Assembly: GCA_001769385.1 (NCBI GenBank) | Contig: MEPB01000068.1 | Location: 63,917-127,916 of the forward strand | Source: Bacteroidetes bacterium RIFCSPLOWO2_12_FULL_35_15 | Lineage (GTDB): Bacteria; Bacteroidota; Bacteroidia; 2-12-FULL-35-15 | DNA: 64,000 nucleotides | Direction of reading: 5' to 3' | Part shown: positions 1,584 to 24,979 of the stretch, in pieces | How positions within the stretch are numbered: position 1 is the stretch's first letter | Layout of the letters: each line of letters starts with the position of its first letter | The notes under the pieces: model-generated | Seen by the model: the letters and a program-made list of their open reading frames with translations, nothing else | Database searches by the model: none | Told to the model about the DNA's origin: nothing | Program-made: the position numbers and the translations under genes

Positions 1584-2267
1584 ATGAACGAACTAAAAGC
1601 CTTTATAGCAGATAATCTTTCCGGTTTTTCACCAAAAGCCATTCCCGGATTTATTTTTAGTTTTATGGTGTGTGCCGTATTATCCTTTATATTAGGACGA
1701 TTGTACGTGAAATATGGTAATTCCTTATCAAACCGAAAATCATTTTCAAGAAATTTTATTGTATTGGCAATAACTACCATGTTCATTATTTCAGTAGTAA
1801 AATCCTCTTTGGCATTGTCATTGGGTTTGGTTGGTGCCTTGTCAATTGTCCGTTTTCGGTCTGCTATCAAAGAACCTGAAGAATTAACCTATTTGTTTTT
1901 AACTATTGCAATTGGCTTAGGTTGCGGAGCAGGATTGACCATTTTAACACTTATTGCTTTTATCGGATTTATGATCGTTATCTGGTTCAATAACCGATTC
2001 CAGAAAGATATTGAAACTCAAAATCTGTATCTGACTATTTCAAGTAATGCTCCTGCATCAATTGATCTGAAGAAAATCATTAATGAATTAAAAAAACATT
2101 GTTCCTCTATAAAATTGAAACGCAGTGATGAAAACGCTTCTACAATGGAAGCATCATTTTATGTCGAATTTGAGGATATTGAACAATTGGAAAATACAAA
2201 AAATGCTTTAAAAAACATTCACCCGTCCGTAGCAGTTACATTTATGGATAATACACGTGATCTATAA
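1584..2267 (+). CDS. DUF4956 family membrane protein
   Basis: Signature SLALSLGLVGALSIVRFRSAIKEPEELTYLF, several TM segments and a soluble C-terminal domain; adjacent to a VTC-domain gene, as is typical for this family. Confidence 0.85.
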   Translation: MNELKAFIADNLSGFSPKAIPGFIFSFMVCAVLSFILGRLYVKYGNSLSNRKSFSRNFIVLAITTMFIISVVKSSLALSLGLVGALSIVRFRSAIKEPEELTYLFLTIAIGLGCGAGLTILTLIAFIGFMIVIWFNNRFQKDIETQNLYLTISSNAPASIDLKKIINELKKHCSSIKLKRSDENASTMEASFYVEFEDIEQLENTKNALKNIHPSVAVTFMDNTRDL

Positions 2268-2310
2268 TTCTTTGAAGAGCAGTTTAAATTTTTTGATGCT
2301 AATTGTTATA

Positions 2311-2510
2311 GAAACCTCTCGCCTTTTTCACTCTTTCTCGACTCCGCTCGAAATAACATTGCTGGGGCAGGCGAAGGTGTCAAATGTCGAAGTGAGGAGG
2401 TCATCCTGAGTTTGTCGAAGGAGTGGGAAAGCCCACGCAGATATTTCGACAGGCTCAATATGACTACACACGCTTCGGTTCTGTTTCGAGTCGAGAAACG
2501 AGAGAGGGAT
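2311..2510. repeat. Nested composite palindromic (REP-like) element
   Basis: Outer arms TTTCTCGACTCCGCTCGAAATAACA / TGTTTCGAGTCGAGAAA enclose an inner pair GTCATCCTGAGTTTGTCGAAGG / TTTCGACAGGCTCAATATGAC. Confidence 0.6.
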
Positions 2511-2548
2511 AAATAAAATTATTTTAGTAAAATTAAAATAGCGATTTC

Positions 2549-3247
2549 ATGTCTCAATTAAATAATAATCAATCAGAGGAGTTGCGGCATGAACGCAAGT
2601 TTCTAATTACCGATTATTCAGCAGCTGAAGTAGAACAGATCATAAAATACAATCCAGCTTGTTTTACAGAGATATATCATCCGCGAACAGTAAATAATAT
2701 TTATTTTGATAGCTTGGGTTTTGAAAGTTATTATGGAAATATTGAAGGAGACGCAGATCGCAGCAAAGCCCGTATTCGTTGGTACGGGATTTTATTCGGA
2801 GAAATTGATCATGGTGTGCTTGAGTTTAAGATCAAAAAAGGCTTATTGGGAAAAAAAGATTATTATACGCTTGCTCCATTTACTTTAGATACAGATTTTT
2901 CGAAACAGCAAATAGTGAAGGCTCTGAGTAGGGATACAATTCCGAATCATATTCGCAATTCAGTTTTATCCATGCAGCCTTCCTTATTAAATTCATACTC
3001 CCGTAAATACTTTATTTCAGCAGATAAGCAATTCAGAATTACTATTGATAAAAATTTAACTTATTACAGGATATCCTATAACAACACTACATTTTTGAAT
3101 AAAGTTATTGATAATAAGTCGGTGGTGCTGGAATTAAAATATGATTCAATATTAGAGCCTGAAGCCAAAGAAATTGGAAATAAATTCCCCTTTAAAATGA
3201 CAAAAAATTCTAAGTATTTACAAGGGATAGAACGTGTTTTATTTTGA
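2549..3247 (+). CDS. VTC domain (polyphosphate polymerase-like, CYTH/TTM fold) protein
   Basis: RHERKF, NNIYFD, RSKARIRWYG, LEFKIK, FRITID, VLELKY and KNSKY motifs. Confidence 0.88.
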   Translation: MSQLNNNQSEELRHERKFLITDYSAAEVEQIIKYNPACFTEIYHPRTVNNIYFDSLGFESYYGNIEGDADRSKARIRWYGILFGEIDHGVLEFKIKKGLLGKKDYYTLAPFTLDTDFSKQQIVKALSRDTIPNHIRNSVLSMQPSLLNSYSRKYFISADKQFRITIDKNLTYYRISYNNTTFLNKVIDNKSVVLELKYDSILEPEAKEIGNKFPFKMTKNSKYLQGIERVLF

Positions 3248-3268
3248 TGTTTCGATTGGCAAATAGAA

Positions 3269-3923
3269 CTGTCATTTCGAACGGAATGCAATGAAGAGAG
3301 AAATCTGCTTATCGAGGTGAGATTTCTCCCAGAGTTTATCCTGAGCGGAGTCGAAGGAGTCGAAATGCCATTAATAACTGGCATTTCGATCGGAATGTAA
3401 TGAAGAGAGAAATCTCATTTCGCAAAGAAGAGATTTCTCCTTGGCAGTCGAAATGACATTAGGGGACTGTCATTTCGATCGGAATTTAATGAAGAGAGAA
3501 ATCTCATTTCACGAAGGAGAGATTTCTCCTTGGCAGTCGAAATGACATTAGGGGACTGTCATTTCGAACGGAATGCAATGAAGAGAGAAATCTGCTTATC
3601 GAGGTGAGATTTCTCCCAGAGTTTATCCTGAGCGGAGTCGAAGGTGTCGAAATGCCATTAATAACTGTCATTTCGATCGGAATGCAATGAAGAGAGAAAT
3701 ATCATTTCGCAAAGAAGAGATTTCTCCTTGGCAGTCGAAATGACATTAGGGGACTGTCATTTCGAACGGAATGCAATGAAGAGAAGAAATCTCATTTCGT
3801 GAAGGAGAGATTTCTCCTTGGCAGTCGAAATGACATTAGGGGACTGTCATTTCGAACGGAATGTAATGAAGAGAGAAATCTCATTTCACGAAGAAAATTT
3901 TTCTCCTTGGCAGTCGAAATGAT
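3269..3923 (+). repeat. Tandem array of 7 palindromic units (family A: CTGTCATTTCGAACGGAATGCAATGAAGAGAGAAATCT-N13/15-AGATTTCTCC-x-GTCGAAATGACA)
   Basis: Units start at about 3269, 3378, 3467, 3556, 3665, 3754 and 3844; period about 89 bp, or about 109 bp when an insert is present. Confidence 0.95.
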
Positions 3924-3941
3924 ACACAATTACATTTTTAA

Positions 3942-5708
3942 ATGAAACCACTTTTAGAAACAAAAAAAAAATTATCACTAAAGCTAAAAGCGTTTATAAC
4001 ACTTTTTGTTGTTATTGTTGTTCTTGCATTTGTGTTTACGTTAAAATTTTCCGGTAATTCAAAAAAGGATTTTGCAAACCTACATTATTCAAAAAATGTA
4101 ATAGCTCCTATAAGCTCATCAGAAGGAGGGTTTTACAAAACAGCATTTACAATTAATCTATCTACTATTGATTTAAATACTCAAATTTATTATACCCTTG
4201 ATGGATCAGAACCTACACTGGCATCTACTTTATATTCAAAGCCAATTTTAATTGAAGACAGAACAGAGAATAAAAATTATTTATCAGCTATACCTACTTC
4301 GCCACGCTGGAAACCACCAATTGGTACTATTTTTAAAGGAACAGTTTTACGTGCGATCGCAATTGATGGGGAAAACAAAAAAAGTGCAGAATTGATAAAA
4401 ACATTTTTTGTAAATGAAAAAGGAAACCAACGTTATTCCTTGCCGGTTATCTCTATTACGGTGAATTCAAAAGAATTATTTGGTTATAACAGAGGTATTT
4501 ATGTTCTAGGGAAAAGCTATTCAGATAAAGATAATTACATACGAAAAAATATTCCCTTGGATCTTCCCTGGTGGGAATATCCTTCCAATTACCTGATGCG
4601 TGGTGCAGATGCAGAAAGAGAAGCTCATATAGAGTTTTATGAACCCTCAGGTAAATTGGGCTTTGAATCAACAGTGGGTCTGAGAATACACGGAAACGCT
4701 ACACGTGGGTATCCTCAAAAATCATTACGCGTTTGTTTCCGGGAAAAATACGGACAATCAGAATTGAATTATAATCTGTTCCCTGCAAATCCGGTAAAAA
4801 AATTCAGTTCTTTTATTTTGAGAAATTCAGGTAATGATTGGGACAAAACAATGTTTCGTGATGGATTCATGCAATCGCTGATGAAAAATTCTTCTATCGA
4901 TATACAAGATTATCGTCCTTCTATTGTTTTTATCAATGCCGAATATTGGGGAATACATAATATCAGGGAACGTTTTGATGAGAACTATTTAGCAAATAAA
5001 TACAATTTAAGTCCAGATAGTGTTATTATTCTGGAGATGAGTGGGAAATTGGTCAGGGGACAAAAAGGGGAGGAGCAAAAGTTTACAGAATTATTGAATT
5101 TCGTTTCGAAAAATGATCTTTCCATCCAGAAAAATTATGACTATGTAAGATCAAAAATGGAGATAGAAAGCTTTTCAGATTTTGTGATTGCAAATGTCTA
5201 TTTCTGTAATAGTGATTGGCCAAATAATAATGTACGGTTTTGGAGATATAATTCGGAGTCGGTAGCAGATAGCCTAGTAAAAAAAGAGGGTAAATGGCGA
5301 TGGATGTTGTATGATACAGACTGGGGTTTTGGATATAATGATTTGAGTTCACCAAAATCTAATTTACTCGAAAAAGCAACACGAGTGGGAAGCGTTGGGA
5401 TCTTATTTAGTGAGTTACTAAAAAATAAAGAATTTGTTTCCCAATTTTTAGATCGTTTTCAGCACCATTTAAATACCAGTTTTTATATCCCTTATGTTAA
5501 TCAAAAGATCGATCAAATGAAGTATTCAATTTCTCCTGAAATCCAAGAACATATTGATCGTTGGAGAGGAATTGGTTCCTATGAAAAGTGGCTTTCTAAT
5601 ATTGGTGTTTTAAAGGACTTCGCAGAACAAAGGCCTTCATTTCAGGCAGATCAATTAAATACATTTTTTAATTTAAAAGGGAAGCAACAAATTATCATAA
5701 AAAAGTAG
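3942..5708 (+). CDS. CotH kinase family protein with N-terminal membrane anchor and Fn3-associated/chitobiase-like domain
   Basis: IYYTLDGSEP, GLRIHGNATR, LRNSGND, YWGIHNIRE, NSDWPNNN and WRWMLYDTDWGFG motifs. Confidence 0.88.
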   Translation: MKPLLETKKKLSLKLKAFITLFVVIVVLAFVFTLKFSGNSKKDFANLHYSKNVIAPISSSEGGFYKTAFTINLSTIDLNTQIYYTLDGSEPTLASTLYSKPILIEDRTENKNYLSAIPTSPRWKPPIGTIFKGTVLRAIAIDGENKKSAELIKTFFVNEKGNQRYSLPVISITVNSKELFGYNRGIYVLGKSYSDKDNYIRKNIPLDLPWWEYPSNYLMRGADAEREAHIEFYEPSGKLGFESTVGLRIHGNATRGYPQKSLRVCFREKYGQSELNYNLFPANPVKKFSSFILRNSGNDWDKTMFRDGFMQSLMKNSSIDIQDYRPSIVFINAEYWGIHNIRERFDENYLANKYNLSPDSVIILEMSGKLVRGQKGEEQKFTELLNFVSKNDLSIQKNYDYVRSKMEIESFSDFVIANVYFCNSDWPNNNVRFWRYNSESVADSLVKKEGKWRWMLYDTDWGFGYNDLSSPKSNLLEKATRVGSVGILFSELLKNKEFVSQFLDRFQHHLNTSFYIPYVNQKIDQMKYSISPEIQEHIDRWRGIGSYEKWLSNIGVLKDFAEQRPSFQADQLNTFFNLKGKQQIIIKK

Positions 5709-5755
5709 GGCAAAACTCTATTTTGCCGTATATTTGAAGGTAAATTATTTTTATT

Positions 5756-7096
5756 GTGGTAGCATATTACAAAGCAAACTTTCAACTTTTTTCTATTTTT
5801 TTTATTTGGCTGATTATTGGAAAATATGCTCCGGTAATTTCCTATGCGGTGATCCCTATTACGATGTTTTTGATGTACAAAAAGGGAATGATAGAGGAAT
5901 TATTGATCGGATATTTTTTCATACTTATTCTATCTGATAGTTTAGAGGATTCTTTGTTTTTTGCTAAAAATGTCAAAAATATTTACATCAGTGTTTTGGC
6001 TGTTTTTTTCTTTTTTGACACCAAAAATTTCCAGCCCTTAAATAAGCTGTATAAACTGTATGTTCCTTTCTTTATTTTTGCACTTTTTACCATATCCATT
6101 AGTCTTTTTGAGCCATTTTTCTTTACCGGTTTTCAAAAAACCATTTCTTTTGCCATTTCATTAATGATCATCCCTAATTTTATTACCAGGCTGTATAGAG
6201 AAGGAGGGGGATTGTTTTTAAAACGAATTGTTTTTTTTGCGGTCACAATTTTGATAATCGGTTTTATTCTGAAATATGTCGCTCATGATTTTGCGTATTT
6301 AGAAAATGGACGATACCGTGGATTTTTGGGTAGTCCTAATGGTTTAGGAATATACAGTGTTTTAACGTTTATTATTTTTTTTGTTATCGATTATTTTTTT
6401 CCTTCCTTATTTACTAAACAGGAAAGAATTATTCTGATTGGGGCAATATTACTTTCCATCTTTCTTTCGGGATCCCGTAATAGCGTTTTTGCTATTCTTA
6501 TATTTTATTTTTTTCAACGTTTTTTTAGTGTATCTCCCTTCTTGGGTTTTATTCTATTTCTTTTAACTTTATTCGTTTCGGAACTAATTAGTACAAATCT
6601 CTCTTCTATATTAAATTCGATTGGGCTAGGGGAGTTTTTCAGAACAAAAACCTTGGAAGAAGGTAGCGGAAGATATATTGCATGGAACTTTGCATGGATT
6701 CACATTCAACAGAATTTTTTTATTGGGAAAGGTTTTGCCTACAACGAATTTTATATGCGCCAATATTACGCCTTGTTATCAAAGTTAGGACATCAGGGAG
6801 GGATACATAATTCTTTTTTAACATTTTGGATGGATCAGGGCTTGATAGGCTTATTAATATATTTGAGATCCTATATTTTAATGTTCATTAAATCCGCAAA
6901 ACAAACTAAGTTCGCATATCCGATACTCTTTGCTCTCTCTTTTACGGCAATTTTTGAGTCATGGTTGGTAGCGTCATTGAGTCCGTTTGCATTTCTGGCG
7001 ATTTTTATTTTTACGATCATTACAAGTGATGAAATTGTTCCACAAGAATATATGGTAAGTAAAGAACAAGCTCTAATTAAAGAACCTGTTATATGA
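5756..7096 (+). CDS. O-antigen polymerase/ligase (Wzy/WaaL-like)
   Basis: Multi-TM protein with R..G..G.PNGLG, LSGSRNS, SGR and HNSFL...GLIG motifs; GTG start preceded by TATATTTG (5729-5736). Confidence 0.82.
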   Translation: MVAYYKANFQLFSIFFIWLIIGKYAPVISYAVIPITMFLMYKKGMIEELLIGYFFILILSDSLEDSLFFAKNVKNIYISVLAVFFFFDTKNFQPLNKLYKLYVPFFIFALFTISISLFEPFFFTGFQKTISFAISLMIIPNFITRLYREGGGLFLKRIVFFAVTILIIGFILKYVAHDFAYLENGRYRGFLGSPNGLGIYSVLTFIIFFVIDYFFPSLFTKQERIILIGAILLSIFLSGSRNSVFAILIFYFFQRFFSVSPFLGFILFLLTLFVSELISTNLSSILNSIGLGEFFRTKTLEEGSGRYIAWNFAWIHIQQNFFIGKGFAYNEFYMRQYYALLSKLGHQGGIHNSFLTFWMDQGLIGLLIYLRSYILMFIKSAKQTKFAYPILFALSFTAIFESWLVASLSPFAFLAIFIFTIITSDEIVPQEYMVSKEQALIKEPVI

Positions 7097-9702
7097 AAAT
7101 AAACGATTCTTATAAACATAAGTTTTCCAATAACACATCAAAAAATAGTTTTTTTGGAAAACATGTTTTTACAAAGCGAACTCTCTTTTTGACTATAAGT
7201 AGTGTAATTTTTGTTTTCGGTTACCTTGCATCCAATTTTATTAAAAAAAAGGGATATACCGGTTTATGGGATTTCACAACTACAATTACGTCAAATTATG
7301 TTAAAGGATTAAGAGCCAATCCTGAAAATATTTCGATAGAGATAAAAGAAAAAGATTTTAAAAAGTTAGAAAAAAATAGAAAACAAGCCCTTGAACGCGG
7401 TGTGATCATCAATGATCTGGATGGCGATTATGTATCAGCAACGATTGAATACAATGGAAAAAAGATAGATGTAAAATTGCGGTTGAAGGGTCATATGACG
7501 GATCATTTGCAAAAAGATAAATGGTCCTTTCGGGTAAAAGTAAAAGACAAGGATTCATTTATAGGGATGAAACGATTTAGTTTGCAACATCCGGGTACGC
7601 GGGGATATATTTACGAATGGATCTATCATCAACTGATGAAACAGGAAGGAATTATCGCCCTTCGTTATAAATTTATGAATGTAACTGTCAACGGACGGGA
7701 TTGGGGAATCTATTGTGTGGAAGAAAATTTCGATAAAGAATTGATAGAAAATAACAATCGAAAAGCAGGACCAATCATTCGTTTTAATCCGGATCTGTAT
7801 TGGGTGGATAGATTAAATGAACTGGAAGGAGAAAAGCCGGTTGCTGAGTATGCTTCCTATTATTCTGCAAATGTAGAAGCTTATCGTGAGGATAAGGTAT
7901 TGGAAGATTCTACTCAAAAACAGTATTATTTGAAAGCAATTGCATTGATGGAAGGTTTTCGGAATCGAAAATTAAAGGCGGATGCTGTTTTTGATATTGA
8001 AAAATTGGCAAAATTTCATGCGATTATCGATCTGGTAGGTGGTCAGCACAGTATAGATTGGAGCGACATAAAGTATTATTATAATCCGGTTTCTGCAAAA
8101 TTAGAGCCGGTTGCTTATGAAAGTTTTACTGTATTTCCTTTTCGGGATATTTCCGGAAATTACAAATTTGTTATACCCGACAGTAATGAATACTATGAAG
8201 ATCTGCATACCGCTCTGTTTAGTGATCCTGAATTCTTCAAGGCTTATATTGTAAATTTAGAAAGGATATCGGAATCCACTTATCTCGATAACTATTTTGA
8301 TGATGTTAAAAAAGAATTGAATGAAAATCTGGCAATTCTTTACAAAGAATTTCCCTATAAAAAATTTGATAAACAAGGTTATTATCAAAATCAAGTAATG
8401 ATTAAAAAAATACTTAACGTACCTAAATCAATACATGCTTACTTCAGTAATTTTTCAAATGGAAGGATTACATTGCAAATAGGAGCAATAGAATCTTTGC
8501 CTGTTGAAATAAAATCTATTTTAATTGAGGGGAAATATTCATTTCCTTCTTCTCCAATAGTTTTAGCTGCAAAGCAACAAAATAGATATGTTAATTATAA
8601 GGAATATTCTTTCACATTGCCTGCTGGGATGGTTTGGAAGGATTCTTTACTTCAATACATCAAAATTAATTATTCTATTTTAGGATATTCAGTTCAACAG
8701 GAATCAAAGGTATTTCCTTTCCCTCATACCGATACCGAATTTATTTCAACAGATCTGAAAAACAAACAAAGTACTATAAATGAATTTTCATTTTTAATAG
8801 TAGATGAAAATACAAAATCAATATTTTTAAAATCCGGAAAACTGACCATTAGTAGCGATCTGATTATTCCTAAAGGATATAAAGTTTTTGCAAATTCAGG
8901 TGTTTCGATTGACGTTAAAAATTACGCAAAAATAATTTCATATTCAGCATTGTTTTTAACCGGAACAGAAGATGAACCATTTGTGATAGAATCAAGTGAT
9001 TCAACATTTCAGGGAATCGAAATTATAGATGCTAGTAAATCGAAGTTTAGCTATGTTACTTTTAAGAACCTTCCAAAGATACACGATGAACAATGGGCAA
9101 GAAGTGGTGCTCTGACATTTTATGAATCACCTGTTGAATTTAATAATTGTAGTTTTTATAATAGTAAGGCCGAAGATGCTGTAAATTTAATTCGCTCAAC
9201 ATTTTCATTTAAAAAATGTTTGTTTCACAGCATGCATAATGATGCTATTGATATTGACTTTTCGGAAGGTGTAGTTTCGAATTGTGTGTTTGAAAACTGC
9301 GATGAAAACTCCTTGGATATCACAATGGGAAAAGTAAACGTTAATTCGATATACATAAATGGAGCTGGAAACAAGGGATTAAATATAAAAGCCGGAACAC
9401 AGTTTAATGGTAATGATGTACGAATAAAAAACGCTAATATTGCTATTTCTGCTGAAGATCGGTCTTCTGTTGATTTGACTGATGTTAGTATTTCAGATTC
9501 TAAAATAGGCCTGGTTGCATATAAAAATAAACCGGGAGCCGGTCATCCAACAATAAGTGTGTCAGGATTGGTTTTGTCAAATGTAAAAAAGAACTACTTA
9601 AAAGAAAAAGAATCCACTATTAGTGCTAATGGGATCACCATTGGTGATGAAATGAATGACGTAGAAACACTACTTAAAGGTGATAAAAAGAAACGTAAAT
9701 AA
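7093..9702 (+). CDS. CotH kinase family protein with C-terminal right-handed beta-helix
   Basis: KLRLKGH..DH, WSFRVK, WGIYCVEE, KYYYNP..KLEPVAYE; C-terminal parallel beta-helix repeats (EDAVNL, NDAIDIDFS). Confidence 0.8.
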   Translation: MKINDSYKHKFSNNTSKNSFFGKHVFTKRTLFLTISSVIFVFGYLASNFIKKKGYTGLWDFTTTITSNYVKGLRANPENISIEIKEKDFKKLEKNRKQALERGVIINDLDGDYVSATIEYNGKKIDVKLRLKGHMTDHLQKDKWSFRVKVKDKDSFIGMKRFSLQHPGTRGYIYEWIYHQLMKQEGIIALRYKFMNVTVNGRDWGIYCVEENFDKELIENNNRKAGPIIRFNPDLYWVDRLNELEGEKPVAEYASYYSANVEAYREDKVLEDSTQKQYYLKAIALMEGFRNRKLKADAVFDIEKLAKFHAIIDLVGGQHSIDWSDIKYYYNPVSAKLEPVAYESFTVFPFRDISGNYKFVIPDSNEYYEDLHTALFSDPEFFKAYIVNLERISESTYLDNYFDDVKKELNENLAILYKEFPYKKFDKQGYYQNQVMIKKILNVPKSIHAYFSNFSNGRITLQIGAIESLPVEIKSILIEGKYSFPSSPIVLAAKQQNRYVNYKEYSFTLPAGMVWKDSLLQYIKINYSILGYSVQQESKVFPFPHTDTEFISTDLKNKQSTINEFSFLIVDENTKSIFLKSGKLTISSDLIIPKGYKVFANSGVSIDVKNYAKIISYSALFLTGTEDEPFVIESSDSTFQGIEIIDASKSKFSYVTFKNLPKIHDEQWARSGALTFYESPVEFNNCSFYNSKAEDAVNLIRSTFSFKKCLFHSMHNDAIDIDFSEGVVSNCVFENCDENSLDITMGKVNVNSIYINGAGNKGLNIKAGTQFNGNDVRIKNANIAISAEDRSSVDLTDVSISDSKIGLVAYKNKPGAGHPTISVSGLVLSNVKKNYLKEKESTISANGITIGDEMNDVETLLKGDKKKRK

Positions 9703-10738
9703 AATAATTAATTTATCTTTTTGTGGTTTGATAAGCATTCAGTTATTATCAGCACAAATTATTTCTCCATTTAATAAAGTAATGGTGGCCGACACTTCCG
9801 GTAATTATTCCTTTATTGTGAGTGGCCATTTTCACGGAGCTTCCACGAATCTTTCCACCTATCCTGCTTCCACGTTATTAGCGAATATAGATAACTTGAA
9901 CTCTTTGAAGCCAAATTTTTTAATGAGTTTGGGGGATATGTTCCTGGATGTGAATGAAACCTATTTAGAACATTATAAAACATCGTTATTTGAAAAGTTA
10001 AAAATGCCATTGTTGAATGCTGTTGGTAACCATGATCTGTCAAATGGTAATATGTATGAAAAAGTATTTGGCCGGACATATTTTTCATTTACTGCTCAAT
10101 CAGAATTATTTATTGTTCTGAATACGGAAATAAATGATGGAAGCATTAAAGGAGAGCAGCTCGAATTTTTAAAAGTTTGCTTAAATAAAGCAAAGTCAGC
10201 TGATATAAAAAATATTTTTATTTTTTCTCATCGACCTATTTGGGCGGAGGGAAATCCTAAATATGATATGTTATTCGAAGGTAACACGCATAGTCAGTTT
10301 GGTTCACCCAACTTCGAAAAAGAAATTCGTCCTCTACTCGAAAATATGACCTTACCAATTTTTTGGATTTCCGGATCGTTGGCAGGTGGACCGGCTTCAT
10401 TTTTTTATGATAAAGATGAAAACGACTCTATAACATTTATGCAAACCGCAATTCGTGATTTGCCAAGGGATGCCGTCTTACAAATAAATGTAAAAGATGG
10501 AAATGTTACGTTCAAAGGAGTTTCTTTAACAGGTCAGACACTCGAACCAATTGAAAACTACACGATTGATTATTGGAAAAAAACGATTCCGCCCGAAGCC
10601 TCTTTTAATTACAGACTAATTCCTTTATTATTTATTCAAATGTTGAAGCATTACTTTTTTTGGATTGGTTTTGTATCTTCATTAATTTTCTTTTTTGTTT
10701 TAAAATGGATCTTTAACAGATGGAAAAAAAGAAAATAG
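9680..10738 (+). CDS. Calcineurin-like metallophosphoesterase with C-terminal TM helix
   Basis: GHFHG, LGD, VGNHD and FSHRP motifs; signal-like N-terminus and hydrophobic C-terminus. Confidence 0.75.
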   Translation: MIKRNVNKIINLSFCGLISIQLLSAQIISPFNKVMVADTSGNYSFIVSGHFHGASTNLSTYPASTLLANIDNLNSLKPNFLMSLGDMFLDVNETYLEHYKTSLFEKLKMPLLNAVGNHDLSNGNMYEKVFGRTYFSFTAQSELFIVLNTEINDGSIKGEQLEFLKVCLNKAKSADIKNIFIFSHRPIWAEGNPKYDMLFEGNTHSQFGSPNFEKEIRPLLENMTLPIFWISGSLAGGPASFFYDKDENDSITFMQTAIRDLPRDAVLQINVKDGNVTFKGVSLTGQTLEPIENYTIDYWKKTIPPEASFNYRLIPLLFIQMLKHYFFWIGFVSSLIFFFVLKWIFNRWKKRK

Positions 10739-11766
10739 TTTTTCTTTATACCGAAATTGCTGATTATTTTTTAGCAGGATGTAAAGCATTAATCGAAAAA
10801 AATGCAGAAGTGCATATAATACGCTATCCTGTGAATAAAGAAGCGCCATTTCAATTCGATATTCCTGAAAAAATAAAAATTTATGAACGGAATAATTACG
10901 ATAAAAAAACTTTACTTTCTCTCGTTGAATCAATCAACCCGCAAATAATTGTATGCAGTGGTTGGGTTGACAAAAGCTATTTAACTATATGTAAAGTTTT
11001 TAAGAAAAAAGCGATAACTGTTTTAACCCTAGATAATCATTGGAGAGGAGATATTAAACAACGTATCGCCTCCTTCATAAGCCCTTTTTATTTACTAAAA
11101 CGATTTTCGAATTGTTGGGTGCCCGGTTCTTTGCAATTTGAATATGCACTAAAATTAGGTTTTAATAAAAAATCAATTTTATCAGGGTTTTATTCTTGCG
11201 ATTTTGATATGTTTTATAAACAATACCTGGCAAATAAAGATGAAAAACAAAAATATTTTCCAAAACGTTTTATTTTTGTGGGTCGTTATTACGAATTTAA
11301 AGGCATCAAAGATCTTTGGCAGGCATTTATTGAGTTGCAGACAAAGGAACCAACAGAATGGGAGTTATGGTGCTTAGGAACAGGTGATATTGAACCCATT
11401 AAGCATGATAAGATAAAGCATTTCGGATTTGTTCAACCGAAAGATCTACCTGAATTTATAAAGGAAACAGGTGTTTTTGTCTTGCCTAGTCATTTTGAGC
11501 CCTGGGGCGTTGTGGTGCATGAATTTGCAGCTGCAGGTTTTCCTATCATTTGCAGTGATGAAGTTGGTGCAAGGGGAATATTTGTTGAAGAAAATGTGAA
11601 TGGCTATATTTACAAAGCCGGTGATGTTGGAGAATTAAAAAAGCAATTGAAAAAGATGATGAGTTTAGGAGATCAAAAATTAATTGAGATGGGGAAAAAA
11701 AGTATAGAGAAAGCAAAGCAAATTACTCCGGATAGTTGGGCAGATACGTTGATGAAATTGTTGTAA
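10720..11766 (+). CDS. Glycosyltransferase family 4
   Basis: FVGRYYEFKG and LPSHFEPWGVVVHEFAAAG motifs. Confidence 0.9.
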   Translation: MEKKKIVFLYTEIADYFLAGCKALIEKNAEVHIIRYPVNKEAPFQFDIPEKIKIYERNNYDKKTLLSLVESINPQIIVCSGWVDKSYLTICKVFKKKAITVLTLDNHWRGDIKQRIASFISPFYLLKRFSNCWVPGSLQFEYALKLGFNKKSILSGFYSCDFDMFYKQYLANKDEKQKYFPKRFIFVGRYYEFKGIKDLWQAFIELQTKEPTEWELWCLGTGDIEPIKHDKIKHFGFVQPKDLPEFIKETGVFVLPSHFEPWGVVVHEFAAAGFPIICSDEVGARGIFVEENVNGYIYKAGDVGELKKQLKKMMSLGDQKLIEMGKKSIEKAKQITPDSWADTLMKLL

Positions 11767-12088: not shown

Positions 12089-12409
12089 ATGAAACACCAT
12101 AACTATTTTGTATATATTTTAACAAATAAAAACAAAACTGTTTTATACATTGGTGTTACGAATAACCTTGAAAGAAGAATATACGAGCATGAAAGTAATA
12201 GTGGAAATAATTATAAATTTACCTCAAAATACAATTGCATAAATCTTATTTATCATGAAAGATTTGGTAATATAAATCAAGCAATTGAAAGGGAGACAGA
12301 ATTAAAAAAGTGGAGAAGAGAAAAGAAAAATGATTTGATAAATGCAGTTAATCCAAATTGGGATTTTCTAAATGAGGAAATTAAAGAAAGATTTTTTGAA
12401 AAGGTTTGA
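12089..12409 (+). CDS. Small stand-alone GIY-YIG nuclease family protein
   Basis: YFVYILTNKNKTVLYIGVTNNLERRIYEH, FTSKY, AIERE..LKKWRREKK..LI...NP.W motifs. Confidence 0.92.
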   Translation: MKHHNYFVYILTNKNKTVLYIGVTNNLERRIYEHESNSGNNYKFTSKYNCINLIYHERFGNINQAIERETELKKWRREKKNDLINAVNPNWDFLNEEIKERFFEKV

Positions 12410-20118: not shown

Positions 20119-20192
20119 CTGTTCATTTCGAACGGAATGAAATGAGGTGAGAAATCTGTTTATTGAGGATAAGATCCTGCTGGTCGAAATAA
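20119..20192 (+). repeat. Single degenerate family A unit
   Basis: CTGTTCATTTCGAACGGAATGAAATGAGGTGAGAAATCTGTTTATTGAGG...GGTCGAAAT. Confidence 0.8.
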
Positions 20193-20417
20193 TAAAGATC
20201 AAAATTTTTGGTATCGAAATAAAGCGATTCGTAACGGCTTATTCTTTTCCTTTTACCTCCAACACCCGATAATCGTTTTTGATTTTTTTCGGAATATCAG
20301 GTAATTGATTGAGCCTGAAAACAAATTTAGTGTCTGTCCGGTCCATCAAAGCACATTATCCATTTCTTTTAGAGAAATAGTTTCAAAACCGGTTAATATA
20401 TTTTTTATTCCGTTCAA
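20190..20417 (-). pseudogene. Frameshifted, 3'-truncated VTC-domain (polyphosphate polymerase) gene
   Basis: Joining frames across two single-base shifts gives LNGIKNILTGFETISLKEMDNV/LMDRTDTKFVFRLNQLPDIPKKIKNDYRVLEVKGK/RISRYESLYFDTKNFDLYY, the typical N-terminus of Bacteroidota VTC proteins; it ends at the repeat unit. Confidence 0.75.
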
Positions 20418-20418
20418 T

Positions 20419-20988
20419 TTAATATTCGTAAGCGTATTTTTTTATAGAGATCAAATTCCCTTTTGAATCGGTAGTTTTTTTCTCAATTTTCATACTGTTT
20501 TTATCGTAAGTGTAAATTGACTTCTTAATGATATTGCCTTTATTATCAGTAGTTAACTCATATGTTTTTTCAGCTTTTGCATTATAACCATATTGCGTTT
20601 TTTCGATCAACTGATCTTTCCCATCATAAACATATTCTACCGTTTTATCTTTATTGTTATTGTATTCAGTAAGTGTTTTCTTTTTAATATTTCCTTTTTC
20701 ATCATAAATAATATCTTCAATTACATCATTGTTCTTATTGTATTTACGCGTTTCTTTTTTCTTGAATGTACCATCTTTATTATATTCTACATCCTCCACT
20801 TCATTGCCTGAATTATCAAATTTTTGATACGTTTCATTGAATGTTTTTTCTTTCCCATCCACCATTTCAGTAATAGTAACTGTAGATGATTTAATTTTTA
20901 ATTTTTTTACTTCTTTTTTACTTTGAGCAAAAGAGCTGTTACAAGAAAGTAGTAGCAGTACGAGGAAGAAAATGTTTTTAATTTTCAT
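20419..20988 (-). CDS. Secreted hypothetical protein with repetitive beta-hairpin (YD-like) motifs
   Basis: Signal peptide ending SFAQ; repeated Y(D/N)xxG(N)xxxK units. Confidence 0.7.
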   Translation of the reverse strand: MKIKNIFFLVLLLLSCNSSFAQSKKEVKKLKIKSSTVTITEMVDGKEKTFNETYQKFDNSGNEVEDVEYNKDGTFKKKETRKYNKNNDVIEDIIYDEKGNIKKKTLTEYNNNKDKTVEYVYDGKDQLIEKTQYGYNAKAEKTYELTTDNKGNIIKKSIYTYDKNSMKIEKKTTDSKGNLISIKKYAYEY

Positions 20989-21124
20989 AAGATAATTTTA
21001 AAAAGTAGTTTTTAATTGTAAATTTCGAAAGTATCTGCATCAACAGTGTCTTTCTTTCTTTTTATTCATTTCAATATTTTTGAAAACACAATTTTGCACC
21101 ATTTTGTTCATCAGATACTAACCT

Positions 21125-22651
21125 TCATTTTAAAATTTGAAGTTTTAGAAATTGGTCTTCATTTATTTTTAGAATGTAGAAACCTTCTGAGAACTCGGAA
21201 GTATTTATTTTTGCTGTTTTGTTTGTTGAAATGATTGTTTTTGTTTCCTGGCCGAAGGCATTAAAAATCGTAATCCTGTTTTCTTTTTCCTTTCCATTAA
21301 ACTCAATTGTAACCAGGTTGCTTGCCGGATTTGGATATACATGTACAGCGTTTGAAAAAGGATGGTTCTCATCTATCGCAACAAAACAATTATTCAGTGC
21401 CAACTCAGTAATAAGTGAATTTCTGCGAGCTGTTATAAATGATTTTAAACCTAAAATTGTTCCGCCTCCCGGGGGTGGGCCAGTTGTTGTAATGTCTGTT
21501 GTGAGATTATCTTCAAATTGCTGATTGGAATAAAACTTTTTTGTATCAGCATATACTGCGATGCGTATGGCATTGGCAAGTGAATCAATTTTCCCATCCA
21601 ATGCAGCATTACTGAAGTCATAATTTAACCATTGGCAAATAGTATTTATAAATTCGGTTTTATAATTATTGTTTTGCAGCATTTTTTGCATTAAAGGTCT
21701 GCTGCCCGATGGAATTGAAACAAAAAACATACTTAGGTTTTTTAGTTGGGTACTTGTCATTCCCATATTAAAATTTCCGAATGATTCATTCACATCCCAT
21801 GCTACCCATTCAAATTTATTACTTAAGGTATCGTGGTAAATATAATAATTATGACCGCTGCCGATGTATGAATCAAGATTTGCAAAAATATTTATAGCCG
21901 CCCATTGTTTAACAAAACTACCGGTATTGAATATTGTTTCGAGTGAATCGGAAAAATAGGTTCCGGTATTATTGATTTTATTAATAAAAGAAACCAGATC
22001 TGACCAATCATTTATGGTTTCATTCGTATGCAATTCGTATTTAGTGTAATAGGAAGAGGGAGTGCTATTGATCCATTTTAAATCACCGGATGGATCGCCT
22101 TTAAACATATTCCCCTGTTTATTACCAAAGTGTTTATTAAGAAATTGTTTGGTATCAATTTCTTCAATAAACGTATATAATCCCCAATAGCTTCCATTTA
22201 TGTAAACCTTTGTAAAAGCACATCTTGGAGCTCCTAAACCCTGTTCATTGTAAAAGTCACATGCCAGTTTTTCACGCAAAAAAGAAGGATCTTTAAACCC
22301 ATTGTTTAGATTGAATTTTTTTAACCCATCAACGTTTTGTCCGGCAACATATTCATTCAGACTTATTTTAAATGATTTTTTATCGCTTGGATTATTATAC
22401 GATGAATTGCCTTTGAATTTTATTCCAACATTCGAAATAACTGTTCCATCAATTTGTATATTTCCCGTTAAATATTGATCAAGCGGCATATATAATGTAA
22501 GAGAATCCCAATAGTTGGTTTGGCTGAAGGTCATGTATATTTCATGAACCTGAGGGGCTCCAAAAATAATATTGCCTTCAGTTTGTGCTAAAATAGGATT
22601 AGAAAGGATACTGAATAAAGCAAAAAAAGAGAGTCGCTTTTTTAGTTTCAT
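21125..22651 (-). CDS. CotH kinase family protein with T9SS C-terminal sorting domain
   Basis: VGIKFKGNSS, KKSFKI, DPSFLRE, YWGLY, NLDSY..SGHNYYIY, WDVNESFG; CTD VYPNPAS...GFYILKI. Confidence 0.88.
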   Translation of the reverse strand: MKLKKRLSFFALFSILSNPILAQTEGNIIFGAPQVHEIYMTFSQTNYWDSLTLYMPLDQYLTGNIQIDGTVISNVGIKFKGNSSYNNPSDKKSFKISLNEYVAGQNVDGLKKFNLNNGFKDPSFLREKLACDFYNEQGLGAPRCAFTKVYINGSYWGLYTFIEEIDTKQFLNKHFGNKQGNMFKGDPSGDLKWINSTPSSYYTKYELHTNETINDWSDLVSFINKINNTGTYFSDSLETIFNTGSFVKQWAAINIFANLDSYIGSGHNYYIYHDTLSNKFEWVAWDVNESFGNFNMGMTSTQLKNLSMFFVSIPSGSRPLMQKMLQNNNYKTEFINTICQWLNYDFSNAALDGKIDSLANAIRIAVYADTKKFYSNQQFEDNLTTDITTTGPPPGGGTILGLKSFITARRNSLITELALNNCFVAIDENHPFSNAVHVYPNPASNLVTIEFNGKEKENRITIFNAFGQETKTIISTNKTAKINTSEFSEGFYILKINEDQFLKLQILK

Positions 22652-22759: not shown

Positions 22760-24979
22760 TCAAAGCCTAACTCCAATAACACACACATCATCTACCTGTT
22801 CTAAATTTCCTTTCCAATTTAAGAAGGTGTCGTTAAGAGTTTCCTTTTGTTTTGCAACCGGTTTATTCTGTATCGAAAGGAGGAGTTCCTTCATTTGGCT
22901 ATACTTAAATTTTTTTCCTTTTACACCACCAAATTGATCAGCATAACCATCTGTAAAAACATAAAATGAGGTTTCACCTTCCATCTTGAAAAAATGATTG
23001 TTAAATGGTTGCATTTCATCATTGTAGCCAATACACTGTTTGTCGGGCTTTATTTCGGTTAGTTCACCTTTATTAATAATGTATAAGGGGTTATTTGCAC
23101 CGGCCCATTGTAACTCTTTCGTTTCGAGATCCAACCGGATAAGCGACATATCCATTCCGTCTTTTGTTTCATTATCACGTCCGGTTTGATTCAGTTCTTT
23201 TACCACTTTATCTCGTAATTGATTAAGAATTTCGGAAGGGGTAAGTAATTGATTACTTGCAGTAATTTCATTTAGAAATGCCACTCCCAACATACTCATA
23301 AAGGCACCCGGAACTCCATGTCCTGTGCAATCAACAGCCGCCAGATAAAATTGTTTTCCTTTCTCAAGGGCCCAATAAAAATCACCGCTAACAATGTCTT
23401 TGGGCTTAAATAAAATAAAGTGTTCCGGCAAATGTTTGCTTACATGTTCCTGCTCTTTCAACAACGCATCCTGAATCCTCTTGGCATAGTTAATTGAATC
23501 AATAATGTCTTTATTTTTTTCTTCTACAATTTCTTTCTGCTCTTCAATAATTTTTTTCTGCTCTTCTGTTTGTCTGTTTTTCTCTTCAATTAATTTTTTT
23601 TGTTTACGGGTGAAACGCAATGCCCTGAAAATAAATCCGGCAAAAATAAAAACCAAAAGCAAACCACCCGAAACAAAAAGTAATATCAGTTGTTGTTTTT
23701 TAGCATTAACTTCAGTAAGTACATCTTTCTTGTCCTGCTCTGCTTTGCTTTGTGCTTCTTTTTTCTCATATTCATAAGTCATTTCCTTCCGGGTGATCTC
23801 TTTATTTTTATCAGAACTAAAAAGAGAATCCTTTATAGCCACGGCTTCTTCATAATGTTCAAGCGCTATAGAATACTTGCCGGTTGCTTTAAATAAATTA
23901 CTCAACGACAAATGACTTTCCCGGATATCATTCAATGAACCAAGTTCCTGGGCAATAACCAATGACCTGTTTAAATAATCTTCCGCTTCACTGTATTTTT
24001 TTGTTGCTGTATATAACATTCCAATATTTCGAAGCCCACTGGCAATTAAAACTTTTGATTCGATCTCTTCTCTGATTTTCAAGGATCGTAAAAAATAAGT
24101 AAGTGCTTGTTCATAATCCTTTTGGGTATAATAGATACTTCCGATATTACCAAGATTTCGCGCAATTCCACCTTTGTTATTAATTTCCTCGTTGATCTTT
24201 AATGCTTTTATATAAAAATCCAGTGCTTTTTTATTTTCCTTTTGTTCACCATAAACACCTCCCAGATTTCCAAGATGACGCGCAACCCCGGTTTTATTAC
24301 CCAGCTCTTCATCCATTTTTAATGCACGAAATAAGTAATCGAGTGTTTTCGGATAATTTTTAAGCATATAATACAAAGTGCCTATATTGCCCAGGTCAGT
24401 AGCGATTTCATTTTTTCCTCCAATCTCTTCATCCAGCTTCAGGGCCTGTAAATAATATTCAAGAGCTTTTGGATAATTCCCTTGCTTACGATGTACAATT
24501 CCAATATTTCCAAGAGTGGTTGCCTTTTGCAATTTTATTCTTTTGATTTGAGTTTTATTGGAATTATCAGATGACAAAAGCTCCTCCCAGACATCAAGTG
24601 CTTTTGAGTAGTATTTCATGGAAAGTGCATACTCATCTTTGTCATCATTAAAGGAACCAATTTGATAATAAGAAATTCCGATGCCTATTTTTATTGCCTT
24701 GACCAATGATGGATCTTGATTATTGGCTAGTATATTTTCAGCCAGCAGAAGTGCTTCTTTGCTCAGTGATAATGCAGTATCTGAATTATTGAAACTCAGT
24801 TGCCAGGCAAGTGCATTCAGGTAATTGACCTTTGATGTATCTTTTATTCCTGAAACAGCAGCAGAAGGATAGTTTTTTAAAAGTTTGGATAATGAATCAA
24901 TTTTGTCTTGCTGAGCGAATGAATTTAAATGAAAAAAAATAAAAATTAAACATATAAAGTGTTTTTCAACTGCTTTCAT
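22760..24979 (-). CDS. Periplasmic TPR - TM - coiled coil - SpoIIE/PP2C phosphatase signalling protein
   Basis: TPR repeats, one TM, DSINYAKRIQ, PKDIVSGDFYW, DCTGHGVPGA, DGMD, TDGYADQFGG, QVDD. Confidence 0.9.
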   Translation of the reverse strand: MKAVEKHFICLIFIFFHLNSFAQQDKIDSLSKLLKNYPSAAVSGIKDTSKVNYLNALAWQLSFNNSDTALSLSKEALLLAENILANNQDPSLVKAIKIGIGISYYQIGSFNDDKDEYALSMKYYSKALDVWEELLSSDNSNKTQIKRIKLQKATTLGNIGIVHRKQGNYPKALEYYLQALKLDEEIGGKNEIATDLGNIGTLYYMLKNYPKTLDYLFRALKMDEELGNKTGVARHLGNLGGVYGEQKENKKALDFYIKALKINEEINNKGGIARNLGNIGSIYYTQKDYEQALTYFLRSLKIREEIESKVLIASGLRNIGMLYTATKKYSEAEDYLNRSLVIAQELGSLNDIRESHLSLSNLFKATGKYSIALEHYEEAVAIKDSLFSSDKNKEITRKEMTYEYEKKEAQSKAEQDKKDVLTEVNAKKQQLILLFVSGGLLLVFIFAGFIFRALRFTRKQKKLIEEKNRQTEEQKKIIEEQKEIVEEKNKDIIDSINYAKRIQDALLKEQEHVSKHLPEHFILFKPKDIVSGDFYWALEKGKQFYLAAVDCTGHGVPGAFMSMLGVAFLNEITASNQLLTPSEILNQLRDKVVKELNQTGRDNETKDGMDMSLIRLDLETKELQWAGANNPLYIINKGELTEIKPDKQCIGYNDEMQPFNNHFFKMEGETSFYVFTDGYADQFGGVKGKKFKYSQMKELLLSIQNKPVAKQKETLNDTFLNWKGNLEQVDDVCVIGVRL

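Follow-up and report, generated by a model that had tools for sequence, protein, structure and literature searches.

Gene content of the locus

We analysed a 64,000-nucleotide stretch of DNA (hereafter the window) from Bacteroidetes bacterium RIFCSPLOWO2_12_FULL_35_15 (assembly GCA_001769385.1, contig MEPB01000068.1, positions 63,917 to 127,916 of the forward strand). Near its start the window harbors a row of six genes encoding a DUF4956 membrane protein, a VTC-domain protein, two CotH-type proteins (termed CotH1 and CotH2), a Wzy_C membrane protein and a divergent metallophosphoesterase. The six co-oriented open reading frames (ORFs) that the original prediction had placed on the plus strand at 1584-10738 were all found at exactly these coordinates. 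The proteins encoded in the window were scanned against Pfam with a reporting level of E <= 0.01, and the scores were compared with the curated family cut-offs. The genes and the two spacers between them are as follows.

1584..2267, plus strand: DUF4956 membrane protein, 227 amino acids (aa), Pfam E 6.8e-18
2268..2548: spacer with one copy of a short repeat (repeat family D3)
2549..3247, plus strand: soluble VTC-domain (Vtc4-like triphosphate-tunnel) protein, 232 aa, Pfam VTC E 7.5e-30
3248..3941: array of ~89-nt hairpin-bearing repeats between the VTC gene and CotH1 (repeat families D1 and D2)
3942..5708, plus strand: CotH1, with an anchor, a CHB_HEX_C_1/Fn3_assoc module and a canonical CotH kinase domain, Pfam CotH E 3.8e-52
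5756..7096, plus strand: polytopic membrane protein of the Wzy_C (O-antigen ligase/polymerase) family, Pfam E 5.4e-12
7093..9702, plus strand: CotH2, with an anchor, a divergent CotH-fold domain and a C-terminal right-handed beta-helix, Pfam CotH E 1.2e-10
9680..10738, plus strand: divergent metallophosphoesterase with a signal-like N-terminus and a C-terminal anchor, assigned from the ESM Atlas, motifs and hydrophobicity

Conservation of the cassette

A survey of CotH2 with one genome per species returned 108 relatives, from which the best 80 loci were kept; one of these (L120) is without a called CotH2 ORF. Genes upstream of CotH2 were counted in the 56 loci with at least 5.5 kb of upstream DNA, and genes downstream of it in the 65 loci with at least 1.3 kb. 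DUF4956 and a CotH1-type gene each belong to the cassette in 53/56 loci, Wzy_C in 52/56 and VTC in 28/56, while the phosphoesterase lies no more than two genes downstream of CotH2 in 63/65. Median identities to the proteins of the window are 74% for DUF4956, 61% for VTC, 37% for CotH1, 43% for Wzy_C (over 69 loci), 41% for CotH2 and 46% for the phosphoesterase, and the identity of CotH2 falls as low as 32% among the relatives.

The commonest gene order is DUF4956-VTC-CotH-Wzy_C-CotH2-phosphoesterase-GT4, the last gene encoding a family 4 glycosyltransferase (GT). A second common order, DUF4956-CotH-Wzy_C-(x)-CotH2-phosphoesterase, was found in metagenome-assembled genomes (MAGs) labelled Flavobacteriales/Crocinitomicaceae. 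A third, DUF4956-CotH2-VTC, is present in a locus from another class (L026), where it stands beside Wzy_C and sugar-modifying genes, and also in MAGs labelled Omnitrophota, Anaerolineales and 'bacterium'; DUF4956-CotH2-VTC(-Wzy_C) is a second, independent arrangement. We conclude with high confidence that the six genes make up one conserved functional cassette. Chance juxtaposition was considered and rejected, because dozens of species-level genomes share this gene order.

The VTC and DUF4956 proteins

The VTC protein scores 104.6 bits against the cut-off of 23 for Pfam PF09359. When a profile of the bacterial VTC proteins was compared with the PDB, its fit to the catalytic domain of Vtc4 (3g3q, E 1.3e-23) was closer than that to Vtc2 (5.7e-17) or Vtc3 (1.1e-11), which are non-catalytic. 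The profile alignment pairs the following residues of the window VTC with those of Vtc4, whose catalytic roles we take as given.

R13, K17: Vtc4 R196, K200
R75, R77: Vtc4 R264, R266
E92, K94: Vtc4 E279, K281
K103: Vtc4 K294
R152: Vtc4 R361
R163: Vtc4 R373
E195: Vtc4 E426
S221, K222: Vtc4 S457, K458

These positions are invariant or nearly so across 26-38 relatives, and by this alignment the window VTC is predicted to retain every Vtc4 active-site residue that was checked. Hydrophobicity analysis detected no hydrophobic segment in the 232-aa protein, which consists of a single Pfam domain with neither an SPX domain nor a fused DUF202 transmembrane domain. With the window VTC as query, no fused VTC-DUF4956 or VTC-CotH protein was matched among proteins of 407-2000 aa. 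A second search for fusions, with the VTC profile and over 532-2000 aa, gave one match, a eukaryote-type SPX-DUF202-VTC protein; fusions of ~460 aa fall outside this range, hence the evidence is weak.

The DUF4956 protein scores 65.4 bits against a cut-off of 30.6 for PF16316. Its AlphaFold model (mean predicted local distance difference test score, pLDDT, 74.8) contains five long helices followed by a C-terminal beta-alpha-beta-beta-alpha-beta domain. This C-terminal domain (residues 144-227) is ACT/ferredoxin-like in the model and matched ACT-like folds at Z 8.4-10.5, namely 2nyi (Z 10.5), the ACT protein 1zpv (Z 9.2) and the C-terminal domain of MgtC (2lqj, Z 8.4). The fold search gave clear matches for the C-terminal domain only, so that the membrane part was barely tested by it. 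Across 38 relatives from all operon types, the only invariant residues are G81, L82, R90, R92 and F105. Similarity of DUF4956 to MgtC/SapB lies below the family cut-offs (18.1 vs 31.4 in Pfam, 17.4 vs 214 in NCBIfam). A prediction of the complex of DUF4956 with VTC, for which both alignments had 38 rows, received a score of 0.00 and carries no weight for or against binding.

Co-occurrence of VTC, DUF4956 and CotH

The phyletic distribution of the three families was assessed in a phylum sample of 151 genomes, which are kin to one another, so that the counts overstate their independence. VTC was present in 27 of them, DUF4956 in 48 and CotH in 57. Every one of the 27 VTC genomes encodes both DUF4956 and CotH, and CotH was found in 45/48 genomes with DUF4956 compared to 12/103 without it. 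The linkage of VTC to DUF4956 is also physical: all 32 full VTC matches have a DUF4956 gene on the same contig, at a start-to-start distance of 502-960 bp in 31, and in the remaining case the two genes are 3526 bp apart with a CotH2-type gene between them. DUF4956 is thus the constant membrane partner of VTC (32/32). Among 14 control genomes, VTC was detected in three (a Bacteroides, a Corynebacterium and a Methanosarcina), DUF4956 in exactly these, and CotH in these plus Bacillus subtilis. In B. subtilis, CotH works in the mother cell, which contains ATP. The proposal that the three families co-occur beyond this lineage was borne out in the phylum sample, in the relatives of CotH2 and in published loci.

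The genome of the window itself contains seven CotH matches and four VTC genes, each of the latter with one of four DUF4956 genes beside it. We collected 40 loci from the phylum sample, 32 of which hold VTC, and clustered their ORFs. The three other VTC-DUF4956 pairs of this genome belong to one operon type, in which a gene for a 143-aa lipoprotein-like product is followed by VTC, DUF4956 and DUF2490, with a gene for a repeat protein of 189 or 198 aa ahead of VTC in two of the three. These paralogous operons lie on contigs C109, C38 and C39 (L005:4345-9321, L006:7348-10617 and L007:2216-5486). On C109, the VTC-DUF4956-DUF2490 operon is preceded by a gene encoding a CotH-LTD protein with a type IX secretion system (T9SS) domain. 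The operon on C39 is flanked by genes for a tetratricopeptide repeat (TPR)-histidine kinase and a response regulator.

The model of the DUF2490 protein (mean pLDDT 83.9) is an all-beta barrel behind a signal-like helix. Among solved chains it fits best to NanC and KdgM, both small porins (template modelling, TM, score 0.56-0.60), and to PcoB, and four arginines are invariant in nine sequences. DUF2490 is therefore a candidate outer-membrane anion channel on the strength of the model. In Bacteroides thetaiotaomicron, a culturable carrier of the VTC-DUF4956-DUF2490 type, BT3498-BT3499 carry the annotations DUF4956 and DUF2490 (PMC10434189). A different neighbour is found in 15/32 VTC loci, where VTC is immediately preceded by a gene of ~355 codons that has no Pfam name (L008-L023, e.g. 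L008:10172-11248). The profile of its product matches ZneB (6.3e-07), a MexC-like protein (9.6e-07), AcrA (4.6e-06) and EmrA (3.3e-05), and HlyD_3 is recognised in 4/14 members of the family; from these matches it is predicted to be a periplasmic adaptor of the HlyD/AcrA/EmrA type. No ordinary inner-membrane pump gene was called beside these adaptor-VTC-DUF4956 loci, and in one of them (L017) a TolC-type OEP gene is also nearby. Adaptors or porin-like barrels as neighbours of VTC-DUF4956 pairs fit a role in export.

Some further contexts of these families were recorded. A Cthe_2159-type beta-helix carbohydrate-binding protein is encoded beside VTC-DUF4956 in L009:6558-8285 (E 2.7e-96), L024:12089-13702 and L025:7593-9125. 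In L037:9563-12671, a canonical DUF4956 gene without VTC is followed by genes for a 341-aa protein and then a 480-aa Metallophos protein. Sixteen genomes of one family carry a weakly DUF4956-like gene (E ~1e-11, N-terminal half only) and no VTC; the conserved block around it (L041-L047, e.g. L041:9633-10310) contains genes for YceI, DUF6580, an HlyD-like protein, a 410-aa protein and a short-chain dehydrogenase. This block probably represents a different system, and it was kept out of the argument.

The two CotH proteins

CotH1 scores 178.2 bits and CotH2 41.9 bits against the cut-off of 23.8 for PF08757. Each is fused to a carbohydrate-type module: CotH1 carries CHB_HEX_C_1 and Fn3_assoc domains (Pfam), and the C-terminus of CotH2 has a weak Pfam match to a pectate-lyase-like beta-helix, its homologues carrying PF13229 (Beta_helix). 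A search of the PDB with the single CotH1 sequence gave no relevant match, and the Bacillus cereus CotH structure 5jd9 was reached only by profile search (E 1.3e-45). Residues N423, D425 and D458 of CotH1, invariant in a 9-sequence alignment, align with the motifs of 5jd9, such that the catalytic Asp, the Mg-binding Asn and the DFG-like Asp are all kept. According to the accessible text of the study of the B. subtilis enzyme, D228 and D251 are the counterparts of these motifs, and their mutation kills activity (PMC7821199).

CotH2 is recognised as a relative of canonical CotH by hhalign (97.4% probability), and it differs at all three of these positions. The column of the catalytic Asp holds His (H319) in 75/78 family members, that of the Mg-binding Asn holds Lys (K327) in 73/78 and Arg in 5/78, and that of the DFG-like Asp holds Glu (E343) in 73/78 and Asp in 5/78. 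Beyond these, K132, E175, E210 and E211 are conserved in 78/78 and D313 in 77/78. That such unusual residues are conserved speaks for an enzyme that is active, with an altered chemistry, and against a decayed pseudokinase. The family is large (proteins of ~860 aa), with 532 matches at E <= 1e-5 among the candidates scored; its best 120 matches are all at least 46% identical.

Wzy_C, the metallophosphoesterase and predicted topology

The Wzy_C protein (46.2 bits vs a cut-off of 31.7 for PF04932) has 10 hydrophobic segments. Its family includes both polymerases and ligases. The Wzy_C protein matches the other cassette members in conservation, so that its role may be that of a dedicated, ligase-like component rather than of the locus polymerase; this level of conservation argues against an ordinary, fast-evolving serotype polymerase.

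The ORF at 9680-10738 had been described as an exported metallophosphoesterase. It has no Pfam match at E <= 0.01, so that a family assignment by this route failed; its identification as a probable, divergent metallophosphoesterase stood on other evidence, namely the ESM Atlas (feature score 0.98, TM 0.76-0.80 to Metallophos clusters) and a part of its motifs. Among 67 relatives, GD is present in 67/67, GNHD in 67/67 and the motif-IV His in 66/67, while the Asp is missing from motif I, which reads G-H, and G-S takes the place of GH in motif V.

Topology was assessed with simple hydrophobicity and charge rules and no trained predictor. CotH1 and CotH2 each have one hydrophobic segment (residues 18-36 and 32-50, respectively) preceded by a Lys-rich N-terminus, and the phosphoesterase combines a signal-like start with a C-terminal anchor that is followed by basic residues. 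These features recur in orthologues: an N-terminal anchor in 51/55 CotH1 proteins, oriented N-in by charge in 46/51; an N-terminal segment in 66/68 CotH2 proteins, N-in in 62/66; and a C-terminal anchor in 50/64 phosphoesterases. The proposed membrane-anchored CotH proteins and exported phosphoesterase agree with these hydrophobicity and charge patterns and with their conservation. The CotH domains of both proteins and the phosphoesterase are accordingly predicted, from sequence features, to face the periplasm.

Surroundings of the cassette

The cassette lies in a polysaccharide locus, as had been proposed; the Pfam scan places glycosyltransferases and sugar-modifying enzymes on both of its flanks. 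Upstream are four DegT aminotransferases, two GFO/MocA oxidoreductases, several hexapeptide acyltransferases, an epimerase/dehydratase, and GT2 and GT4 enzymes. The downstream flank reads GT4, an asparagine-synthase-like amidotransferase, GT4, an acyltransferase and GT2; a 106-aa ORF with a GIY-YIG nuclease domain (12089-12409) lies between the GT4 and asparagine-synthase-like genes of this glycan locus. Other features of the window that are referred to here are as follows.

10720..11766, plus strand: GT4 glycosyltransferase, frequent next gene of the cassette (Pfam)
20419..20988, minus strand: exported Lys/Asn-rich repeat protein, 189 aa, not VTC; no Pfam family, 92% identity to L007:4471-5040
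21125..22651, minus strand: CotH3, a secreted CotH with a T9SS C-terminal sorting domain (CotH E 4.9e-65, Por_Secre_tail E 4.2e-13)

The last two features had been taken as a second CotH-VTC pairing at 20190-22651. The CotH half of this pairing is real, being the T9SS-tailed CotH3 at 21125-22651 (minus strand), whereas its VTC half, at 20190-20988, is not. The product of 20419-20988 (minus strand) was rejected as a VTC, as it belongs to no Pfam family and shows no similarity to the VTC of the window, and the genome-wide search placed just one of the four VTC genes on this contig. The product of this ORF is 92% identical to the 189-aa exported repeat protein encoded just upstream of VTC on contig C39. 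Because it is this paralogue that sits upstream of the C39 VTC, and not a VTC gene that sits here, any link of 20419-20988 to VTC modules is only indirect. Directly adjoining CotH3, a gene at 22760-24979 (minus strand) encodes a protein that is rich in TPRs and has a SpoIIE/PP2C phosphatase domain at its C-terminus.

The spacer at 3248-3941 contains D1 repeats (5 copies of ~89 nt), D2 repeats and many inverted pairs. The 89-nt unit has 4 occurrences in the genome, all on this contig, and its 31-nt hairpin has 13 occurrences on 5 contigs. In orthologous loci the genes that flank the spacers almost abut, unlike the repeat-filled gaps of the window; DUF4956 and VTC, for instance, are ~10-40 bases apart (e.g. 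in L048). Of the 12 sequencing runs listed, none was of RNA; contigs from four DNA runs cover the cassette genes and break at the repeat spacers, where the summed depth is up 10- to 30-fold. The G+C content is ~33%, and both the T9SS sorting tails and the nearest related loci assign the organism to Bacteroidota. Between 800 and 12800 there are 41 sigma-70 promoter-like sites vs 51.0 ± 7.4 in shuffled sequences, and 10 terminator-like sites vs 5.8 ± 2.8 in shuffles. Both counts are uninformative, and Bacteroidota promoters differ from the consensus used.

Discussion

We propose that the site of action of the cassette would be the inner membrane, on its periplasmic face, and its substrate the glycan of the surrounding locus. 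The soluble Vtc4-like enzyme, docked on DUF4956, would turn cytoplasmic ATP into polyphosphate (polyP), and DUF4956 would carry the chain through the inner membrane, perhaps past the invariant R90 and R92. The anchored CotH-fold enzymes would then use polyP to phosphorylate the glycan that is polymerised or ligated by Wzy_C, and the anchored metallophosphoesterase would trim or remove the phosphate. Such a chain of polyphosphate-fuelled periplasmic phosphorylation, each step of which we infer, is plausible, and we rate its chance as somewhat less than even. It draws support from the strict coupling of VTC to DUF4956, the phyletic tie to CotH, the apparently intact Vtc4-type site, the predicted topology, and the adaptor and porin neighbours of VTC-DUF4956 pairs. 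We also put forward, tentatively and as rather doubtful, a bacterial counterpart of the VTC complex in which a DUF4956 translocator would deliver polyP as the donor for the exported CotH family and CotH2 would phosphorylate a surface glycan, possibly via a phospho-histidine.

A number of observations weigh against polyP-fuelled phosphorylation. VTC is absent in cis in 28/56 cassettes, and where the locus lacks VTC, DUF4956 is 133-143 aa long (27/28 loci) and misses its C-terminal domain; where VTC is in the locus, DUF4956 measures 227-248 aa (30/30 loci). This covariation of long DUF4956 with VTC was rejected as a statistical argument: the CotH2 tree shows a single change in VTC presence and two in DUF4956 length, and the link has no statistical weight because one independent pair amounts to one evolutionary event. 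In five of five checked genomes with VTC-less cassettes, a single VTC lies elsewhere, beside a canonical long DUF4956, so that any supply from this sole pair would act in trans. PPK1 and PPK2 are also encoded in the genome of the window, hence polyP as such is independent of VTC, which is at best an extra, specialised polyP enzyme. CotH2 appears from the alignments to be without the canonical catalytic Asp and Mg-binding Asn, and to our knowledge no CotH uses polyP. DUF4956 bears a weak likeness to MgtC, which the accessible texts present as a regulator and not as a known transporter. The sole characterised CotH is described as ATP-dependent in the available text of its report (PMC7821199). 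In S. intermedius, as far as the accessible parts of two reports go, deletions of the homologues leave Pel formed and have mild phenotypes (10.1101/2024.04.20.589940, PMC12345266); in those parts of the latter, effects are given for the DUF4956 and CotH mutants, and a VTC mutant is not named among them (PMC12345266).

Other explanations of the cassette share part of this evidence. PolyP could itself be the cargo, with VTC and DUF4956 exporting the chain, CotH-fold enzymes and Wzy_C attaching it to the glycan or the envelope, and the phosphoesterase setting its length. The same VTC-DUF4956-CotH linkage data apply to this explanation; VTC-DUF4956 pairs that elsewhere adjoin adaptors or an outer-membrane barrel, with no CotH, suggest polymer export as an end, and the strictly conserved His/Lys site of CotH2 fits a chemistry unlike ordinary kinase transfer. 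We consider it quite unlikely, given that no outer-membrane component was found in the window's cassette, that half of the cassettes are without VTC in cis, and that we know of no enzyme that ligates polyP to sugars. Alternatively, VTC and DUF4956 might work purely in the cytoplasm, where they would turn over polyP or triphosphate, regulate the balance of phosphate or ATP in the manner of MgtC, or control the output of glycan; the periplasmic CotH enzymes would then draw phosphate from a different donor, for example undecaprenyl-pyrophosphate-linked intermediates or the head groups of phospholipids. The periplasmic phosphotransferases known so far do use lipid donors. DUF4956 is weakly MgtC-like with an ACT-type regulatory domain, there are cassettes whose DUF4956 misses the ACT-like domain and which have no VTC in cis, and the authors of the S. 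intermedius work, in the accessible text, write that polyP 'may remain in the cytoplasm' (10.1101/2024.04.20.589940). What such a cytoplasmic role leaves unexplained is the exported-type CotH in 27/27 VTC genomes, the membrane part of DUF4956 that is kept in 53/56 cassettes, and the adaptors or porin-like barrel that flank VTC-DUF4956 pairs, and on balance we hold it to be unlikely.

The CotH proteins might also be protein kinases, as in Bacillus, that act on envelope or secreted proteins, their position in a glycan locus reflecting only co-regulation. The canonical motifs are kept in CotH1, and the sole CotH tested phosphorylates proteins, according to the available text (PMC7821199). This appears very unlikely in view of the Wzy_C gene that stands between two CotH genes in 52/56 loci, the carbohydrate-type modules fused to both CotH proteins, and the lack of a conserved Ser-rich substrate gene in the cassette loci.

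The gene set has a published precedent in Gram-positive bacteria, where cotH, a 'poly-phosphate polymerase' gene (VTC) and DUF4956 (with DUF4832) are described, in the accessible texts, as accessory genes contiguous with pel operons (10.1101/768473, 10.1101/2024.04.20.589940, PMC12345266). Here as there, these three families lie next to one another and are joined to an exopolysaccharide locus. In those accessible texts the CotH of the pel set is predicted to be secreted, its VTC to be cytoplasmic, and its DUF4956 to be an MgtC-like protein with four transmembrane segments and an ACT domain. The cassette described here differs in belonging to Gram-negative Bacteroidota and to a Wzy_C-type locus that is not contiguous with pelDEA(DA)FG, and in having two CotH genes, a conserved Wzy_C and an anchored metallophosphoesterase but no DUF4832 hydrolase; no Pel family was detected among the 18 window and 18 upstream proteins scanned. 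The mBio authors state, in the accessible part of their paper, that the trio is found only inside pel loci (PMC12345266). We find it outside pel loci in the operons of this genome, in the loci of the phylum sample and in those of the CotH2 relatives.

With the eukaryotic VTC complex (Vtc4/Vtc3 or Vtc2/Vtc1; 3g3q, 7ytj, 8i6v), the window VTC shares the catalytic family and active-site residues and the coupling of a synthase to a membrane protein, the logic of synthesis and translocation being only proposed here. It differs in having no SPX and no fused DUF202, and in a membrane partner from an unrelated family, DUF4956. The Bacillus spore-coat kinase CotH (5jd9; PMC7821199) belongs to the same Pfam family, and CotH1 keeps the equivalents of its D228 and D251. 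The Bacillus enzyme is cytoplasmic (in the mother cell), ATP-dependent and acts on proteins, whereas the CotH proteins of the cassette are predicted to be periplasmic and bear modules of a glycan type, with the three catalytic positions of CotH2 occupied by His, Lys and Glu. MgtC/SapB proteins share with DUF4956 a small membrane domain of helices and, behind it, an ACT-like domain at the C-terminus (2lqj, Z 8.4). The differences are that DUF4956 falls far below the cut-offs of that family and that MgtC is without a link to VTC or CotH.

A likeness in function may also be sought among the Fam20/POMK-type kinases of the secretory pathway, which have a kinase fold and phosphorylate sugars of a growing glycan outside the cytosol. 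These enzymes differ in that ATP is imported into the Golgi or endoplasmic reticulum lumen; we know of no ATP supply for the bacterial periplasm or exterior.

Our literature search, which covered sources other than subscription journals, returned no description of the Bacteroidota cassette, of a His-variant CotH or of polyP as the donor of an exported CotH. Queries combining 'VTC domain' with bacteria and polyphosphate turned up only eukaryote-centred papers, and queries on secreted CotH kinases in Bacteroidetes gave nothing relevant by title or the start of the abstract. The cassette is a variant of a published gene set of unexplained role, and the mechanism proposed for it, should it hold, would be of a categorically new type.

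Bacteria commonly export enzymes with a kinase fold, and what powers them is an open question in a periplasm and exterior with no known ATP supply. The finding that VTC is always coupled to DUF4956, and is always accompanied by an exported CotH in the sampled genomes, turns this question into a concrete hypothesis that is testable with a handful of proteins. Should polyP-fuelled phosphorylation prove true, there would be a new currency of energy and phosphate beyond the cytoplasm, bacteria would have a route for exporting polyP, and a major phylum of the environment and the gut would display a novel class of glycan modification. Should it prove false, the cassette would still point to a step in the assembly of Bacteroidota surface glycans that is widespread and as yet uncharacterised.

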